A stretch of 64,000 nucleotides of DNA from Escherichia coli (GTDB lineage Bacteria; Pseudomonadota; Gammaproteobacteria; Enterobacterales; Enterobacteriaceae). The stretch's first letter is position 1, and each line of letters begins with the position of its first letter. A program made the translations under genes and the position numbers. Below are positions 7,703-41,755 of the stretch, in pieces. The notes under the pieces are model-generated. The model was given only the letters and a program-made list of their open reading frames with translations, was not told the origin of the DNA and searched no databases. The stretch is from the NCBI RefSeq assembly GCF_044324875.1, contig NZ_CP172185.1. One strand, 5' to 3'.

Positions 7703-9019
7703 TCAGTTAGTTGCCGTTTGAGAACGGAAACGGGCAAAGATAAAGATGACCGCGAAGCAGAGTGCGGGGATCAGTTCAGCAGTGGGGATGTTGCCCGCCG
7801 CGTCACTGACAAAACCCATGACCGGAGTGACAATACCGCCGCCAATAATGGTCATAACGATGAAGGACGAACCGTATTTGGTGTCCTGGCCGAGATTCTT
7901 AATGCCCAGCGAGAAGATTGTTGGGTACTGAATCGACATAAAGGCACTGCATAATGTCAGGGCTATTAAGCCCACATGACCGCCAGCGAAGGCTGAGATC
8001 AGGCACAGTGCCATAGCGATTAATGCGTAGGCTGCCAGGACTTTGTGTGGTGCGAAGCGACTGATGAGCCAGGTACCGGTGAAACGACCAATAAAGAAGC
8101 ACACCATGGTTCCGGTTAAATAGTTAGCGGCAAAGCCTGCGGTCATACCTGGAATTTCTTCTACAGCGTAGCGAATCAAATAGCTCCAGCAGGCCGTTTG
8201 CGCGCCGACATAGCAGAATTGCGCTAATACCGCCCAGCGCCAGTGACGAATACGCGCCAGACGAGAAAGCGATGCGGAGAACGATCCTTGTTTGGCGTCA
8301 CTGTGATTATCACTCTGCAATGCCGGGAATTTCGTCAGCATGATCAGCAGGGCGACCAGTAACACGATAGCCACGATGATCATATAAGGTGTCTGTACCG
8401 ATAATACCAGGCTGTGTTTATACGCACTCAATTGCTCTGGAGACATTTTATCGAGAACGTCTTGCGATTGATGTGGCACGTTAGACAAAATAAGACTTTG
8501 CCCAAAGACAACCGCGATAATTGCGCCAAACGAGTTAAATGTTTGCGCAAGATTTAAGCGGAAGTGACCACTGCTTTCCGGCCCTAATACCGTAACAAAA
8601 GGGTTTGCGGCAGTTTCCAGACAACCTAATCCGGCTGCAATAATAAATAGGCCAACTAAAAATAAGGTGTAGTTCATTATTTCTGCAGCGGGCCAGAATA
8701 ATGCAGCGCCCAAGGCATATAAAAATAATCCGGTAATAATCCCTGCTTTATAACTGAGTTTTTTCATCAATATCCCAGCAGGGATTGGGATAATGAAATA
8801 ACCAAAGTAAAAGGCCGATTGGATCAGGCCAGCCTGGAAATTTGTCAGCGTAAAAGCCTGCTGGAATTGAGGTAATAAAATGTCGTTAAGGTTATTGGCT
8901 ACCGCCCAAAGAAAAAACAGTGAGCACAGCAGCGCGAATGGAATAATGTAACTTCTGCTTTGCCCTGCATCTTTATCTACCGCACGGTAACTCTGCGTTT
9001 GTATTGATGTGTTTCCCAT
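7703..9019 (-). CDS. fucP: L-fucose:H+ symporter FucP (MFS)
   Basis: 438-aa polytopic membrane ORF; synteny. Confidence 0.95.
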   Translation of the reverse strand: MGNTSIQTQSYRAVDKDAGQSRSYIIPFALLCSLFFLWAVANNLNDILLPQFQQAFTLTNFQAGLIQSAFYFGYFIIPIPAGILMKKLSYKAGIITGLFLYALGAALFWPAAEIMNYTLFLVGLFIIAAGLGCLETAANPFVTVLGPESSGHFRLNLAQTFNSFGAIIAVVFGQSLILSNVPHQSQDVLDKMSPEQLSAYKHSLVLSVQTPYMIIVAIVLLVALLIMLTKFPALQSDNHSDAKQGSFSASLSRLARIRHWRWAVLAQFCYVGAQTACWSYLIRYAVEEIPGMTAGFAANYLTGTMVCFFIGRFTGTWLISRFAPHKVLAAYALIAMALCLISAFAGGHVGLIALTLCSAFMSIQYPTIFSLGIKNLGQDTKYGSSFIVMTIIGGGIVTPVMGFVSDAAGNIPTAELIPALCFAVIFIFARFRSQTATN

Positions 9020-9565
9020 AGCATCCTCTTAGGTTCAGAAGCTTAAGCACGTAATCGGTTATGTTTTCAAAAGTGCAAAACCAGCGAGTTCGGGCTTCAT
9101 ATCAGTGAATATTTGCCTGTCAGAAATGAACTCATGGATTCATTTTCAAATAAAAAACGCTCTGTAATATGACGGCGGTCACACTTATTAGCTGGGAGGT
9201 GACTTTATGTGACTACCATCACTTTAATAATCGAAATTTCATGCCCGTTTCAGAAAATAAATCATAAAAAACACAAACCCGATGACCGTATTAATTGTTT
9301 GTGCCGAAAACGGGCATTTCTGGCGAGGGGGAATGGAAAAATGACCGTTTTGATAAATATTTTTAAGAGCGGTCATTTTTAATAGGGTTATAAAAAGAGA
9401 ACTTGCAGTTATTTACTGTGATTAGTTGAACCAGGTCACAAAATATAAGCTTGTGAATTTCTTTCTGGTTAATCAGGAAGAAGATGGTGGGTAATTAAAC
9501 GGCTAATTCAATAGTGTGAAAGGAACAACATTATTGCCCTGTTTTGAATCAGAGAGAGGTAGCTA
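9020..9565. promoter_or_regulatory. divergent fucPIK / fucAO control region
   Basis: 546-bp AT-rich spacer between divergent operons; repeated TGACCG/CGGTCA motifs (9170-9183, 9282-9289, inverted pair 9341-9347 and 9370-9376) and inverted repeat ATGCCCGTTT (9241-9250) / AAACGGGCAT (9309-9318). Confidence 0.6.
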
Positions 9566-34718: not shown

Positions 34719-36032
<1,314 letters not shown>

Positions 36033-36050
36033 GTCTGACTTTATCTGATT

Positions 36051-36082
36051 AAAAAATGCCAGCCTTCGGGCTGGCATTTTTT
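36051..36082. terminator. bidirectional intrinsic terminator between convergent eno and the TPM operon
   Basis: AAAAAATGCCAGCC-TTCG-GGCTGGCATTTTTT hairpin flanked by A-run and T-run. Confidence 0.8.
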
Positions 36083-36091
36083 ATGGTTGAG

Positions 36092-36985
36092 TTACCAGCG
36101 ACCGGACGCGCCGCCACCGCCAGAAGAACCGCCCCCGCCGCTAAATCCGCCGCCACTTGAGCCGCCACCGGAAGAGGATGAAGAAGAACCTTTTCTTGAA
36201 GCTCTTTCTTTACTGAGTTTTTTGTATTTGGCGCGTAGCTTTTTATTAACGATAAGCCAAAAAATAACCAGTGGTACGATAGCAAAAGGCGTGAGCATAC
36301 CGCAGGCAACGATTAAATTCGTCCATGGTCCTGGCTCGGCAACATAGAGGAATACCATCCCATAAATTCCGCCAGTCAGTGCTATCCAGGGTAAATTCGA
36401 CGGATCGGTAAAAACAATAAAATATGAAAGTACCGCCAGCAATATAATTACAGCAAGCGATAATGGAATAGGGGGATTGATACTGTAATAATCCCCCCTG
36501 TCTTCCGGTAATTCACCATTCAACAGAAGCGCTCCGATATTTTCGCTTGCCAGTGTTAACCCACCCATCAAGTCATCACTTTTGAAGGCTGGGATTAATA
36601 TATTACGGATAATCTTCGCTGCTTGCAGATCGGTAACCACCCCTTCCAGCCCGTAGCCCACTTCTATACGGACAGCATGATCTTCCCAGGCAACCAGCAG
36701 TAAAATACCATCGTTTCGCTGCTTATCTCCCAGTTTCCAGCTATCAAAAACGCGTGTTGCATATTGTTCAATGGTATCGTCTCCGGTGGATGGCACTATT
36801 AATACGGCGACCTGGGCCCGTGTTTTTTGTGTGATATCCTGCAGCTGTTGTGTCAGTGATTGTTGTTCAGACGTGCTTAACGTACCAGTAATATCGGTCA
36901 CCTGTTGGCGCAGCTCCGGCACAGCAATTTGCTGGGCAAGCCCAGGAAGGCACCATAAAGTAAGTAGAAAAAAGATTAAGCGCAT
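36092..36985 (-). CDS. ygcG: TPM-domain membrane protein (YgcG-like), paralog C
   Basis: 297-aa ORF: signal peptide, TPM/DUF477-like domain, hydrophobic segments, Gly/Ser-rich tail ending GRW; symbol assigned by position next to eno only. Confidence 0.7.
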   Translation of the reverse strand: MRLIFFLLTLWCLPGLAQQIAVPELRQQVTDITGTLSTSEQQSLTQQLQDITQKTRAQVAVLIVPSTGDDTIEQYATRVFDSWKLGDKQRNDGILLLVAWEDHAVRIEVGYGLEGVVTDLQAAKIIRNILIPAFKSDDLMGGLTLASENIGALLLNGELPEDRGDYYSINPPIPLSLAVIILLAVLSYFIVFTDPSNLPWIALTGGIYGMVFLYVAEPGPWTNLIVACGMLTPFAIVPLVIFWLIVNKKLRAKYKKLSKERASRKGSSSSSSGGGSSGGGFSGGGGSSGGGGASGRW

Positions 36986-36990
36986 AATGA

Positions 36991-38139
36991 TTACCAGCGT
37001 CCGGATGAACCGCCGCCTCCTGAAGAACCACCACCACCGCGGAAAGAATTTCTCGACGAAGAGCGAGAATGAGCATTACGATTCCCCGTTTTCCTGTTGC
37101 TTTTTTCTCCTGACCCCAGTTTAAGATTGCCAGTAAATTTGGCCACAATGATCAGCAGAACTATGCCAGCAATGGTTATTGGGCCGATAAAATGATCAAT
37201 TAGCCCAATAATTGTTGAGATGAATGCAATATCTTTATTACTGGCGAACACCAGGCACCATCCCACAATAATTATCAGCATCACGACAAACAATGAATTT
37301 CGTCCTGATTCACGAACCTGCGGAGTCTTCTTTTGTTTTTTCACTTTAGTGTTTTTATTTTTGGGGGCCAGCATCATAGGAAATGCGCGGCACATATTAA
37401 AAACTACCGCGAGACGCTGCCAGCAGGTTGTTGCTAACAATAAACTAAAACAAACGACCGATACCCGCCGAATGATGACATCGTCCTGAAAGGAGAAAAA
37501 CCAGACCATAGGGGTAATCATCGATATCATCCATATGCCACGCCCTGGGCGGCTGGCAAATCGCCAGAGGACAACGATGGCAACGATCATCAGCAGTGTC
37601 CAGGCAAGACAAGGCAGCGAACGTTGCGGATTAGCAAACAGATGATTGGCTAAAGCATCCAAAGGGCTAAGGTTCGCTTTGATATGGGTAAACTGTGCGA
37701 TGCTTTCAATTCCGCCCGTTAATCCAGCAAAGAGATTGTTTTTTTCGAATTCTGGCTGCATATGGTAACGAACAATTTGCGCAGCTTGTTCCGGCGGCAA
37801 CATCTGTTCCAGTCCATGTCCAATCTTCATTGACGCCAGCCCTTCCGGCCATACGACGAGAATTAAGATACCTTCGCCATATCGCTTCTCTCCAACGGGT
37901 TTCCAGTGATATACCCCGTATCTCTGCGAGGCTGCAAGTTTAATGTTTTTGCCCCCTGTGGTCGGCGTGACCAACACGGCCACCTGGAAGTGGTTTTGCT
38001 GCACGAGAGTCTGTAATTGTTGAGTTAAAGCAGTTTGTTCTTCTGTCGTTAATGTCCCGGTTAAGTCAGTTACTGAAGGCAATTGTTCAGCGAATACCTG
38101 AAAACCGCATAGCATCAGAAGTAAGAGAAAAATACGCAT
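36991..38139 (-). CDS. TPM-domain membrane protein, divergent paralog B
   Basis: 382-aa ORF: signal peptide, TPM-like N-domain, several hydrophobic segments, Lys-rich linker, Gly/Ser tail ending GRW; 5 bp upstream of paralog C. Confidence 0.7.
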   Translation of the reverse strand: MRIFLLLLMLCGFQVFAEQLPSVTDLTGTLTTEEQTALTQQLQTLVQQNHFQVAVLVTPTTGGKNIKLAASQRYGVYHWKPVGEKRYGEGILILVVWPEGLASMKIGHGLEQMLPPEQAAQIVRYHMQPEFEKNNLFAGLTGGIESIAQFTHIKANLSPLDALANHLFANPQRSLPCLAWTLLMIVAIVVLWRFASRPGRGIWMISMITPMVWFFSFQDDVIIRRVSVVCFSLLLATTCWQRLAVVFNMCRAFPMMLAPKNKNTKVKKQKKTPQVRESGRNSLFVVMLIIIVGWCLVFASNKDIAFISTIIGLIDHFIGPITIAGIVLLIIVAKFTGNLKLGSGEKSNRKTGNRNAHSRSSSRNSFRGGGGSSGGGGSSGRW

Positions 38140-38153
38140 ATCAATTCCTTTTG

Positions 38154-39047
38154 TTACCAGCGCCCGGAAGCGCCACCGCCACCAGATGAACCGCCACCAC
38201 CGCTGAAATTGTCATTGTTGAATGAAGAGGATGACGATGATGAATAGTGGGAGGAAGAATTGCTTCTTGTATGGCGTGATGGCTGGTTGGCATCACGCAT
38301 CGAATCCCGAACCTTTTTGCCGAAGGGGGTAAAAGCGATGGCGACAGCCAGGAACGGTGTGGCGAAGCAGAGTAATGTTGCGAGTACTCCCCAGCTTCCG
38401 CTGAAGCCTGCTATAGGTAAAACAAAGGCCAGTACAATAGCTGCGAAGCAAATTACTCCCAGCGTTTTGATATATCCTCTGGCAGAAATAAACGTCAGTA
38501 CTATCGCCCAGACTAACAAAGCCCACCAACCGCTAAAAGGCAAAGGGTGATCGGTCGGTGTTATCGTTGCTAAATTATTCCCCGTCAGACGACTTTCAAT
38601 ATCGCTGATTCCCTTTTGCAAACCACCAGCCAGGTCCCCTTTTTTAAATGCCGGAATAATACTGTTGCGAATAATTTTCCCGGACTGTGCATCCGTAATA
38701 ATACCTTCCAGTCCGTAACCGATTTCAATACGCACGGTATGATCCTGCCAGGCGACTAACAGTAGAACGCCATCATCGTGGTCTTTATCACCCGGTTTCC
38801 AGCTATCGAATACCCGCGTTGCGTACTGCTCGATGGTTTCATCGCCTGTTGTTTCAACCACTAACACGACCAACTGTGCGTTGTTTTTTTGCGTCAGGGC
38901 TTTAATCTGGTTGGTCAGGGTGTTTACTTCACTGTTTGTCAATGTGCCGGTTAAGTCATTCACATACCTGGGTGATTCAGGTACTGGAATTTGTGTGGCA
39001 AACACAGATGAACAGAAGAAAGCCATAAGGAAGATAAAATTTCGCAT
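38154..39047 (-). CDS. TPM-domain membrane protein, paralog A
   Basis: Close paralog of 36092-36985; ORF runs to 39077, but the start at 39047 (MRNFIFLMAFFCSSVFA signal peptide, GGAAG RBS) avoids overlapping lemA. Confidence 0.7.
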   Translation of the reverse strand: MRNFIFLMAFFCSSVFATQIPVPESPRYVNDLTGTLTNSEVNTLTNQIKALTQKNNAQLVVLVVETTGDETIEQYATRVFDSWKPGDKDHDDGVLLLVAWQDHTVRIEIGYGLEGIITDAQSGKIIRNSIIPAFKKGDLAGGLQKGISDIESRLTGNNLATITPTDHPLPFSGWWALLVWAIVLTFISARGYIKTLGVICFAAIVLAFVLPIAGFSGSWGVLATLLCFATPFLAVAIAFTPFGKKVRDSMRDANQPSRHTRSNSSSHYSSSSSSSFNNDNFSGGGGSSGGGGASGRW

Positions 39048-39060
39048 ATAACTTCCCCGC

Positions 39061-39663
39061 TTAATGCGCATTAGCATTCTGGCTAAAATCTATTATTGGT
39101 GCTTTACTCACAGCTGCGACGTCATCCGGCAAATAATTTTTCTTCGGTGTGTAATCCATGACCTTTGCGGTTAATACAGCGGGGAATTTGCGGATAGTGA
39201 CATTATATTGTTCAATGGCTTTAATATATCTTCCTCGCGCAACGGCAATTCTATTTTCACTTCCTTCGAGCTGTACCATTAAATTTTGATAGAGTTCCTG
39301 AGCTTTTAAATCAGGGTAACGTTCACTAATTATCGTTAACTGACCGAGAGTGCGAGACACCTGCGCCTGGGCTTGTTGCCAGGCTTGTAATTTTTGCGCA
39401 TCTCCCGGAGCTTGCTGAAGATCGCTACTGGCGCGATTAGCCTGGCTACGTGCCAATGTTACGGCTTCCAGTACCTCTTGTTCATGGCTGGAATAACCTT
39501 TAATACTGGCGACAAGATTAGGAATAAGATCGGCGCGACGTTGATATTGATTCAATACCTCAGACCAGGAGGCGTTAACCTGCTCATCATAGGTTTGAAT
39601 ATCGTTATATCCACAGCCTGATAAATTGGCAATAAATATAATTACGATGAATATCCTGAGCAT
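39061..39663 (-). CDS. lemA: LemA-family lipoprotein
   Basis: 200-aa ORF with lipoprotein signal (LSGC lipobox) and LemA-like helical body; first gene of a four-gene minus-strand operon. Confidence 0.75.
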   Translation of the reverse strand: MLRIFIVIIFIANLSGCGYNDIQTYDEQVNASWSEVLNQYQRRADLIPNLVASIKGYSSHEQEVLEAVTLARSQANRASSDLQQAPGDAQKLQAWQQAQAQVSRTLGQLTIISERYPDLKAQELYQNLMVQLEGSENRIAVARGRYIKAIEQYNVTIRKFPAVLTAKVMDYTPKKNYLPDDVAAVSKAPIIDFSQNANAH

Positions 39664-39835
39664 GTCTATGTCCCTTTTAATTAATTCCTTAAAACATAAT
39701 ACGCCGCTTCATTTTATTCTTTATGATCTCATCCACTTTTTGCCTTAAACCTGCCTGTAACAGAATGTTAATAAGACATGATTGTTGTGGCAGGATCTGC
39801 AATAATTAACAATTATCCACTTCACAGAGAATGCT

Positions 39836-40507
39836 ATGCAGTACCCGATTAACGAGATGTTCCAGACCCTGCAAGGTGAGGGTTACTTTACCGGCGTCCC
39901 CGCCATTTTTATTCGTTTACAGGGATGCCCGGTTGGCTGTGCCTGGTGCGACACCAAACACACCTGGGAAAAGCTTGAGGATCGGGAAGTCTCCCTTTTC
40001 AGCATTCTGGCGAAGACCAAAGAGAGTGATAAGTGGGGGGCGGCGAGCAGTGAAGACTTGCTGGCTGTCATTGGTCGCCAGGGATACACCGCGCGGCATG
40101 TGGTGATTACGGGTGGTGAGCCTTGCATTCATGATTTGCTGCCACTGACTGACCTGCTCGAAAAGAACGGTTTTAGCTGCCAGATCGAAACCAGTGGTAC
40201 TCATGAGGTACGCTGCACACCGAATACCTGGGTTACCGTATCGCCAAAGCTGAACATGCGCGGCGGCTATGAAGTGTTGTCACAGGCACTGGAGCGAGCC
40301 AACGAAATCAAGCATCCAGTGGGACGCGTACGTGATATTGAAGCACTGGATGAACTACTGGCAACACTGACCGATGATAAACCGCGAGTCATTGCACTGC
40401 AGCCGATTAGCCAAAAGGATGATGCTACTCGTTTATGTATCGATACGTGCATTGCGCGCAACTGGCGTTTGTCGATGCAAACGCATAAATATTTAAATAT
40501 TGCCTGA
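39836..40507 (+). CDS. queE: 7-carboxy-7-deazaguanine synthase QueE (radical SAM)
   Basis: 223-aa ORF; MQYPINEMFQTLQGEGYFTGVPAIFIRLQGCPVGCAWCDTKHTW with CxxxCxxC-type radical-SAM cluster motif. Confidence 0.9.
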   Translation: MQYPINEMFQTLQGEGYFTGVPAIFIRLQGCPVGCAWCDTKHTWEKLEDREVSLFSILAKTKESDKWGAASSEDLLAVIGRQGYTARHVVITGGEPCIHDLLPLTDLLEKNGFSCQIETSGTHEVRCTPNTWVTVSPKLNMRGGYEVLSQALERANEIKHPVGRVRDIEALDELLATLTDDKPRVIALQPISQKDDATRLCIDTCIARNWRLSMQTHKYLNIA

Positions 40508-40845: not shown

Positions 40846-41118
40846 GAGTTCCCCGCGCCAGCGGGGATAAACCGCTTCATCTGTCGGGCTAACTGGACAA
40901 AGAAACGAGTTCCCCGCGCCAGCGGGGATAAACCGTCGGTTTGACATCAAAGAAGCCATCAATCAGGGAGTTCCCCGCGCCAGCGGGGATAAACCGGTCT
41001 GGCCATAGGAACAAAGAAATTTGTCTTTGAGTTCCCCACGTCAGCGGGGATAAACCGGACACAGAGCGCCGCTATAGCGCCTATGCCAAGAGTTCCCCGC
41101 GCCAGCGGGGATAAACCA
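40846..41118 (+). CRISPR. type I-E CRISPR array (CRISPR2.1 position), 5 repeats and 4 spacers
   Basis: 29-bp repeats GAGTTCCCCGCGCCAGCGGGGATAAACCG at 40846, 40907, 40968, 41029 (variant CCCCACGTCAG) and 41090 (terminal, ends A); 32-bp spacers at 40875-40906, 40936-40967, 40997-41028, 41058-41089. Confidence 0.95.
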
Positions 41119-41571
41119 CCATATAACCCGTTATCTCTTTCTCAAGTTTTTATATTAGCAGTACTTGTAATAAGCAACATATCCACGTAACACCTCATGT
41201 TCAAAATAGTTCTCCATGCCAGAGAAGTTCACAATTATCGATACAAAAAATTAAATTTAATCAAAGTGTTATTTGTATGATTCTTAAATCGTTAAGAAAT
41301 TTTAATATATTATTTTTTTAATATTAATTAATGCCTGTTAATTTTTTCTTTAGAATAACAGTGTATTTTTTAAGCTTATTATTCATTGATTAAGTAATAA
41401 ATCTGGAAATTTGTCTTTGTTTTGAGGCTAATGAGTGATTTTACATAATCGCCTCTATACGCTGTTGATGAATAGTTCTTATGAATAAAGATATCCAGTT
41501 CATACTTTAAGTGAAAATTGATAAAGTGCGATTCGTATTGTCTTTTATTCTAAAGACATCGAGTGTAGTTA

Positions 41572-41709
41572 ATATTCCTTGTAAAAACAGGGATAAACCG
41601 AACTAGTTAAAGTTTTTATTATGTTCCCTGCATCAGCGGGGATAAACCGGACTTGTTATCATTTTTTAAGTTGTCGAACTTATGTTCCCCGCGTCAGCGG
41701 GGATAACCA
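41572..41709 (+). CRISPR. degenerate CRISPR remnant (CRISPR2.2-3-like)
   Basis: Three decayed repeat-like units ending GGGGATAAACCG (41572-41600, 41621-41649, 41682-41709, the last with a 1-bp deletion); intervening segments of 20 and 32 bp; AT-rich leader-like region upstream. Confidence 0.6.
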
Positions 41710-41755
41710 TTCAGGTATGTTCAGGCCGGGCAGTTTCCCGCCCGGTCTTCCTCAC

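Follow-up and report, generated by a model that had tools for sequence, protein, structure and literature searches.

The lemA-TPM operon between queE and eno in Escherichia coli and its relation to the yqcG-ygcG locus of K-12

Comparison with described LemA and TPM systems

The closest described relative of the locus treated here is the canonical operon composed of lemA, a gene for a long TPM protein and a gene for a small TPM protein, as represented by BA41 (PDB 5ANP) and BA42 (PDB 4OA3) of Bizionia argentinensis. Our locus comprises positions 36092-39663 of a stretch of 64,000 nucleotides of Escherichia coli (assembly GCF_044324875.1, contig NZ_CP172185.1), in the following called the window, and consists of a lemA gene and three genes encoding TPM-domain proteins, TPM1, TPM2 and TPM3, located between eno and queE. 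As in the canonical operon, lemA comes first and a long TPM gene follows immediately. Furthermore, the LemA protein carries a lipobox followed by GYN, and the long TPM protein has a signal peptide, a TPM domain, a transmembrane (TM) region and a C-terminal GGG(A/S)SGxW. In contrast to the canonical operon, a small TPM is absent from the window, and instead there are three divergent long copies, one of them with a region of five TM helices. The operon is a lineage-specific variant, with several long TPM proteins and no small one, of a known but uncharacterised LemA-TPM module.

To place the locus among its relatives, species-representative genomes were queried with LemA, which returned 80 proteobacterial loci. 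A TPM gene was found directly downstream of the lemA relative in 74 of them, in agreement with the original prediction, made from the letters of the window, that LemA/TPM pairs are widespread. The combination of lemA, a long TPM (about 300 aa, Gly tail) and a small TPM (about 170 aa, no signal peptide, NELPDxP tail) was present in 46/80 loci, and a small TPM was found in 58/80. A single TPM gene was detected in 26/80 loci, and three TPM genes only in E. coli and E. albertii. Beyond Escherichia, the LemA proteins most similar to that of the window come from Buttiauxella, Erwinia and Pseudomonas (52-55% identity), and their loci have no small TPM either. Clustering of the flanking open reading frames (ORFs) revealed no further conserved partner gene common to more than 13/80 loci. 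In our literature search LemA and the TPM domain were named together only in one paper and its preprint, as differentially expressed genes, and the literature gives bacterial LemA-TPM pairs no tested function. The description of the system as functionally undefined therefore stands. The four genes themselves, however, carry RefSeq annotations in more than 1,000 genomes, which makes the system under-studied rather than undiscovered.

More distant similarities were found for the single proteins. In Psb32/TLP18.3, CcoZ/MSMEG_4692, MOLO-1 and YdjH, too, a TM segment tethers the TPM domain to an energy-transducing membrane, on its extracytoplasmic or lumenal side, and YdjH, encoded in the PspA operon of B. 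subtilis, likewise shows a low-complexity tail. However, similarity to Psb32/TLP18.3, CcoZ, MOLO-1 and YdjH exists at domain level only, and these proteins have neither a LemA partner nor a multi-TM region. Orthology to Psb32 was rejected (equivalog model NF047379, 35.1 and 33.6 bits vs a cutoff of 160; no match for TPM2). The LemA protein of the window matches the NCBIfam model of MamQ, a protein of magnetosome membrane biogenesis, at 1e-26, but it is a predicted lipoprotein instead of being TM-anchored, and the neighbouring genes are not those of a magnetosome locus. Orthology to MamQ was likewise rejected, the score against the equivalog model NF040966 being 93.8 bits at a cutoff of 250.

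The four-gene operon is real and intact in the window. It comprises four co-directional ORFs on the minus strand with 200, 307 (or 297, counted from the likely start), 382 and 297 codons. The gene lemA (39061-39663, minus strand) encodes a predicted lipoprotein of the LemA family with 200 aa and starts with an ATG at 39663 with AAGGGA upstream. TPM1 was listed as an ORF at 38154-39077 (minus strand), but its likely start is the ATG at 39047 behind the ribosome-binding site GGGGAAG, 13 bp past the lemA stop, giving a gene at 38154-39047 for a protein of 297 aa. This start agrees with the 894-nt gene called by PGAP/RefSeq in strain GDSC2227PM. TPM2 (36991-38139, minus strand, 382 aa) and TPM3 (36092-36985, minus strand, 297 aa) follow after spacers of 14 bp and 5 bp, respectively. 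Four co-directional ORFs with these two spacers had been predicted, and the ORFs lie exactly where they had been placed. The flanking genes are eno (34734-36032) and queE (39836-40507), both on the plus strand, also as predicted. Between the stops of TPM3 and eno, a hairpin (36050-36083; dG -25.3 kcal/mol, z -5.67) with a 15-bp stem and runs of A and U at its sides represents a bidirectional intrinsic terminator common to the operon and eno. In strain CH4796 (record L087, 541-1887), which over the full interval matches the window most closely (99.0% identity), an IS4 element is located between eno and TPM3, at or adjoining this shared terminator. The lemA and TPM3 genes of the window are 100% identical to those of strain Ecol_316.

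In a profile search, the LemA product matched Pfam PF04011 over the complete model (2.5e-48, positions 1-149 of 149), and its closest solved relative is TM0961 (PDB 2ETD, 6.9e-33). The N-terminus is formed by a hydrophobic signal peptide with the lipobox LSGC at residues 14-17 (Cys17), followed by GYN, with Gly at position +2. The full-length profile match and the predicted N-terminal membrane anchor together place the protein in the LemA family and support the lipoprotein that had been proposed. A lipobox was detected in 65/80 homologue loci, those without one being mostly mis-framed high-GC ORFs, and the string LSGCGYN recurs in proteobacterial homologues. According to the +2 rule of E. coli, Gly at this position leads to sorting of a lipoprotein to the outer membrane. 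Following this rule, LemA is probably anchored in the outer membrane, at its periplasmic side.

All three remaining proteins match Pfam PF04536 (TPM_phosphatase; TPM1 1.1e-40, TPM2 7.1e-20, TPM3 9.2e-39), which confirms the three YgcG-like TPM-domain membrane proteins expected from the ORF translations. Structural relatives of TPM3 are PDB 7TBR (Rhom172_1776, 5.6e-22) and 5ANP (BA41, 4.4e-20), and PG0361 (2KW7) is also among the closest solved TPM relatives. From the N- to the C-terminus, the proteins contain a Sec-type signal peptide (predicted cleavage sites VFA/TQ, VFA/EQ and GLA/QQ), the TPM domain, hydrophobic segments, a basic/Ser-rich stretch and the terminal GGGGSSGGGG(A/S)SGRW. Thereby all three exhibit the architecture of the YgcG type, i.e. 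signal peptide, TPM domain, TM region and a Gly-rich tail ending in GGG(A/S)SGxW. TPM1 has three predicted TM helices, a Ser-rich linker and the C-terminal GGGGSSGGGGASGRW. TPM3 has about three TM helices, a basic and Ser-rich linker and the C-terminal GGGGSSGGGGASGRW, and TPM2 comprises a more divergent TPM domain, about five TM helices, a Lys-rich loop and the C-terminal GGGGSSGGGGSSGRW; these counts of TM helices come from a simple hydropathy scan instead of a dedicated predictor, with sub-threshold segments added by eye. The odd number of TM helices and the positive-inside rule suggest that the TPM domain would be periplasmic and the GGGGxSGRW tail cytoplasmic. The named full-length relatives of TPM2 are all from Escherichia.

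The C-terminal GGG(A/S)SGxW was found in 75 of 82 lemA-linked long TPM proteins across Proteobacteria, the remaining ones being mostly cut by contig ends. BA41, a protein of the Bacteroidota, likewise ends in ...GGGGASGGW. The GGGASGxW tail is a near-universal and unexplained motif of the YgcG-type subfamily; literature searches, which were not aimed at the motif, yielded no function for it.

The K-12 locus and the direction of change

In K-12, the queE-eno interval contains yqcG and ygcG only and is about 2.6 kb shorter than that of the window. A single ygcG at this site had been foreseen, and the alignment adds yqcG. The K-12 locus resembles that of the window in its site between queE and eno, in the approx. 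90 bp of spacer nearest to queE, which are identical, in near-identical 3' Gly-tail codons and in encoding a TPM protein of the YgcG type. It differs in the lack of lemA, TPM1, TPM2 and TPM3. The original prediction implied that ygcG is one of the three TPM copies. However, the K-12 YgcG shows an identity of 42% to TPM3, 37% to TPM1 and 31% to TPM2, and is therefore a fourth paralogue instead of a copy that was retained. At the DNA level, K-12 and the window become homologous again in only two places. The first comprises the 3'-terminal 82 nt of the final gene with its Gly-tail codons, over which TPM3 and K-12-type ygcG share 96-99% identity; the second extends from about codon 11 of lemA outward into the queE spacer and shows 86% identity.

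The second of these places includes yqcG, a small-protein gene of 46 aa in K-12. When the two sequences are aligned base by base, the lemA start and the codons of its signal peptide can be traced in degenerate form inside the K-12 yqcG ORF (ATTATATTTATT, followed by GATAACGA). In the window, the ATG equivalent to that of yqcG (39664-39720; compared with DH10B, record L001, 2579-2719) is followed by the codons TTT TAA, and there is no yqcG at this position. The alignment thus identifies yqcG as a relic of lemA, whose stump became the 5' half of the small gene.

The genes lemA-TPM1-TPM2-TPM3 are also located between queE and eno in E. albertii. In Klebsiella spallanzanii (record L089, 4537-8468), queE is followed by lemA, a TPM1-like and a TPM2-like gene, then by an array of clustered regularly interspaced short palindromic repeats (CRISPR) of about 1.3 kb, and then by eno. 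The TPM2-like product of this organism is devoid of a TPM domain, and the signal peptide, the five-TM region and a GGGGASGRW tail are kept. Since E. albertii and K. spallanzanii harbour a lemA operon at this very site, its presence there predates E. coli. Together with the lemA relic in yqcG and with ygcG as a fourth paralogue, these outgroup operons indicate that K-12 shows a reduced, derived state. The comparison thus argues for the four-gene form as the ancestral state of the ygcG locus instead of an insertion, and for K-12 as a deletion derivative; lemA and every TPM gene except one have been lost from most E. coli. We are highly confident of this evolutionary account and of the anatomy of the operon.

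The original prediction had interpreted lemA and two extra TPM copies as an accessory expansion of about 2.7 kb, i.e. as an island that a K-12-like ancestor would have acquired horizontally next to the CRISPR2 hotspot. An island might be suspected from the fact that only 20-27% of the 5,426 complete E. coli genomes used for our census carry the operon, from the G+C content of 41-50% in the interval vs 49-54% in eno and pyrG, and from the scarcity of close LemA relatives among species representatives of the Enterobacteriaceae. However, the site is occupied in both E. albertii and K. spallanzanii, K-12 retains the lemA relic, ygcG is a fourth paralogue, and the chimeric genes described below reflect recombination within the locus. 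Furthermore, inspection of the window ORFs revealed no tRNA and no integrase, insertion sequence (IS) element or other mobility gene within the interval, and none of the operon genes was found on a plasmid in the complete-genome census. Horizontal acquisition is thereby largely refuted and seems very unlikely to us.

The predicted vicinity to a CRISPR locus was correct. A type I-E array at 40848-41120 starts about 340 bp beyond queE and contains five repeats GAGTTCCCCGCGCCAGCGGGGATAAACCG with a period of 61 bp. About 500 bp further on, at 41609-41713, two or three degenerate CRISPR repeats were detected, and the DNA downstream of queE is AT-rich.

Alleles and selection in E. coli

In the census, lemA was present in 1,451 genomes (27%), TPM2 in 1,102 (20%) and a full TPM3-type last gene in 782 (14%), and about 332 genomes (6%) contained only the first approx. 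240 nt of TPM3. The K-12 type, i.e. yqcG and ygcG without lemA, was found in 3,929 genomes (72%), and a further type, here called allele B, in 340 (6%). The form with three TPM genes is present in about 1,100 genomes (20%), O157 and CFT073 among them. The arrangement is therefore not part of the E. coli core genome, and this part of the original prediction was borne out.

The last gene of the operon in CFT073 (record L085, 493-1365) is a chimera, in which residues 1-80 of TPM3 are fused at IEQYATRVFD to a K-12-type ygcG. The approx. 332 genomes with a partial TPM3 match are presumably of the same type, judging from CFT073 as the one genome examined. An E. coli record of the species-representative scan (L005) shows the order lemA-TPM1-TPM3-chimera, its third TPM gene (8403-9287) being again a chimera of TPM3 and ygcG; this allele was found in 0 of the 5,426 complete genomes. 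In the window, the codons of the Gly tail form a 55-nt direct-repeat family with three copies on the minus strand (36091-36145, 36990-37044 and 38153-38207; 76-84% identity). The alleles are mosaics that arose by unequal recombination among the tandem paralogues; the 55-nt Gly-tail repeats and the IEQYATRVFD core offer homology for such events.

In allele B, lemA is accompanied by a TPM1 that carries a frameshift of 1 nt and by an unrelated ORF of 120 aa. In record L002 (1689-2051) this ORF is not annotated, encodes two hydrophobic segments and replaces the genes after the frameshifted TPM1. The 57-aa 'hypothetical protein' annotated next to this ORF results from translating the TPM1 tail out of frame.

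A genuine TTA-to-TGA stop was found at codon 225 of TPM1 in O157 (record L003); TPM1 is intact in the window. In CFT073 (L085, 2762-3433), 8178 (L086, 2772-3443) and CH4796 (L087, 4217-4888), the TPM1 annotation of RefSeq/PGAP reads 'incomplete, missing C-terminus', but the 297-codon ORF is actually intact. A widespread truncation of TPM1 was therefore rejected: the real stop is found only in O157, and in the three other strains we are dealing with an annotation artefact, which probably results from the use of the truncated O157 protein as evidence. The ygcG gene is a pseudogene in DH10B and 22AR0750.

The ratio of non-synonymous to synonymous substitution rates (dN/dS) against E. albertii was 0.03 for lemA, 0.20 for TPM1, 0.25 for TPM2 and 0.13 for TPM3. 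Within the species, values of 0.09-0.15, 0.15-0.27, 0.19-0.33 and 0.07-0.11, respectively, were obtained, the last range excluding CFT073 with its chimeric last gene. All four genes are under purifying selection, which is weaker than that on eno or queE. For the solitary ygcG of the K-12 type, dN/dS was 0.25-0.42 (small counts). These values and the ygcG pseudogenes fit a weaker constraint after the loss of lemA.

It might be that the operon is a decaying relic without a current function in E. coli. The loss of lemA in most strains, the pseudogenes in O157, allele B, DH10B and 22AR0750 and the dN/dS of the solitary ygcG would be expected for such a relic. In the window, however, all ORFs are intact, their starts are properly spaced from ribosome-binding sites, a terminator is present, and the dN/dS values of the four genes (0.03-0.33) speak for maintenance. 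We therefore consider complete decay distinctly unlikely.

Another explanation for the diversity of the alleles would be a conflict system, i.e. variation of a phage or colicin receptor, defence or competition between strains. At least four alleles segregate in E. coli, and the paralogues have conserved ends but differ strongly in their membrane regions. Moreover, CRISPR arrays adjoin the locus in E. coli and Klebsiella, and the TM region and Gly tail of TPM3 show a weak Pfam match (1.1e-4) to a YxzE-like bacteriocin. The bacteriocin match, however, falls on low-complexity sequence. In PADLOC, three of the proteins gave no match and TPM2 a single marginal one on a TM stretch (E 0.0069); dN/dS is well below 1, and the operon is a stable chromosomal one across Proteobacteria and Bacteroidota without a toxin, nuclease or ATPase as partner. 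A role in conflict thus appears extremely improbable. A known anti-phage defence system was rejected as a candidate, the four proteins having no significant match in PADLOC-DB.

Regulation, proposed function and significance

The alignment to K-12 delimits a divergent queE/lemA control region at 39664-39835 (minus strand). A PhoP-box-like direct repeat, TGTTACAGGCAGGTTTA, with 2 mismatches to the consensus is located at 39746-39762 (minus strand), within the part identical to K-12. The K-12 spacer exhibits a strong sigma-S signal in systematic evolution of ligands by exponential enrichment (SELEX) and a sigma-S peak in chromatin immunoprecipitation (ChIP) (PMC5493296, PMC4447067), and binding of phosphorylated PhoP (PhoP-P) was detected by electrophoretic mobility shift assay (PMC4974570). 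YqcG, which is driven from this spacer in K-12, is named a cell envelope stress response protein by EcoCyc and NCBI. Because yqcG sits on the lemA relic, its promoter is most likely, by homology, that of the lemA operon and would drive lemA-TPM1-3. The binding of sigma-S and PhoP-P to the K-12 spacer and the naming of YqcG indicate that the operon is probably a stationary-phase or envelope-stress module.

For the TPM domain, comparative analyses favour a chaperone-like function during assembly of complexes linked to membranes and regard phosphatase activity as unlikely (PMC11237479; Lipocone preprint). The TPM protein CcoZ/MSMEG_4692 occurs with respiratory complexes (PMC8267372), Psb32/TLP18.3 is a TPM protein of photosystem II repair, and an assembly role has been proposed for MOLO-1 and YdjH, too. 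Four-helix bundles of the LemA type have been linked to membrane remodelling (MamQ) and scaffolding. By analogy, the operon might encode a stress-induced module at the periplasmic face that acts as scaffold or assembly chaperone. It would be transcribed from the spacer shared with queE in stationary phase or under envelope stress. The four-helix bundle of LemA might serve as a lipid-anchored periplasmic scaffold of the kind used by MamQ in membrane remodelling, and the TPM proteins might work in the inner membrane as adaptors or as chaperones in the assembly of membrane complexes. The specificity of the three TPM paralogues for clients or partners would then lie in their divergent membrane regions, and the invariant cytoplasmic tail could be a docking peptide. 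We put this mechanism forward as a tentative possibility, and for the account as a whole, which joins anatomy, evolution and mechanism, our preference is slight.

Several points weigh against this interpretation. The topology on which it builds relies on the TM counts given above. A scan of the spacer for sigma-70 consensus promoters found none, and towards lemA the spacer deviates from that of K-12, so that regulation may differ as well. Loss at the locus is tolerated, as seen from the 72% of E. coli without lemA, the TPM1 stop of O157 and the frameshift of allele B, and the function must therefore be dispensable or conditional. Finally, in vitro ATPase or phosphatase activity has been described for BA41 and BA42, and TLP18.3 is likewise called a phosphatase/ATPase, so that an enzymatic role is conceivable.

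Alternatively, the TPM proteins might act in the periplasm as metal-dependent phosphatases or nucleotidases with LemA as an accessory, forming an enzymatic system for scavenging or dephosphorylation. Besides the name of the Pfam family, the ATPase/ADPase activity reported for BA41 and the metal bound in 7TBR could be explained in this way, as could a pair of Asp and Glu in an N-terminal loop (VTDxxxxLxxxE) that is common to all three paralogues. On the other hand, the comparative analyses mentioned above prefer complex assembly, and the published TPM structures show no consensus on an active site. The conserved TM region and cytoplasmic tail are not obviously needed by a phosphatase, and the TPM2-like protein of K. 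spallanzanii kept the membrane part and the tail but lost the TPM domain. We regard an enzymatic system as unlikely and prefer a scaffold or assembly chaperone.

A bolder and rather doubtful extension of the scaffold or chaperone role is that LemA and the long TPM protein form a near-universal machine for repair or remodelling of the cytoplasmic membrane, working from its periplasmic face, as a counterpart of PspA/ESCRT-III on the other face. If so, GGGASGxW-COOH would couple to a cytoplasmic partner, in most bacteria the small TPM. Escherichia would then have lost the small TPM, and its long subunit would have diversified into a recombining cassette array, with the segregating alleles reflecting balancing selection on membrane-embedded specificity.

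Few bacterial envelope proteins that lack an assigned function are as widespread as LemA and TPM. The new points of our study are that K-12 is a poor model for them, that yqcG, as judged from the alignment, is a lemA relic, and that the GGGASGxW tail is near-universal. K-12 carries a lone paralogue and the lemA relic, which may partly explain why K-12 genetics has provided little insight. Pathogenic lineages that are common, among them O157:H7 with its TPM1 stop and CFT073, carry lemA and three TPM genes and offer a tractable E. coli background for study. With yqcG reinterpreted in this way, the YqcG promoter would by homology be that of the lemA operon and would predict when the full system is expressed.

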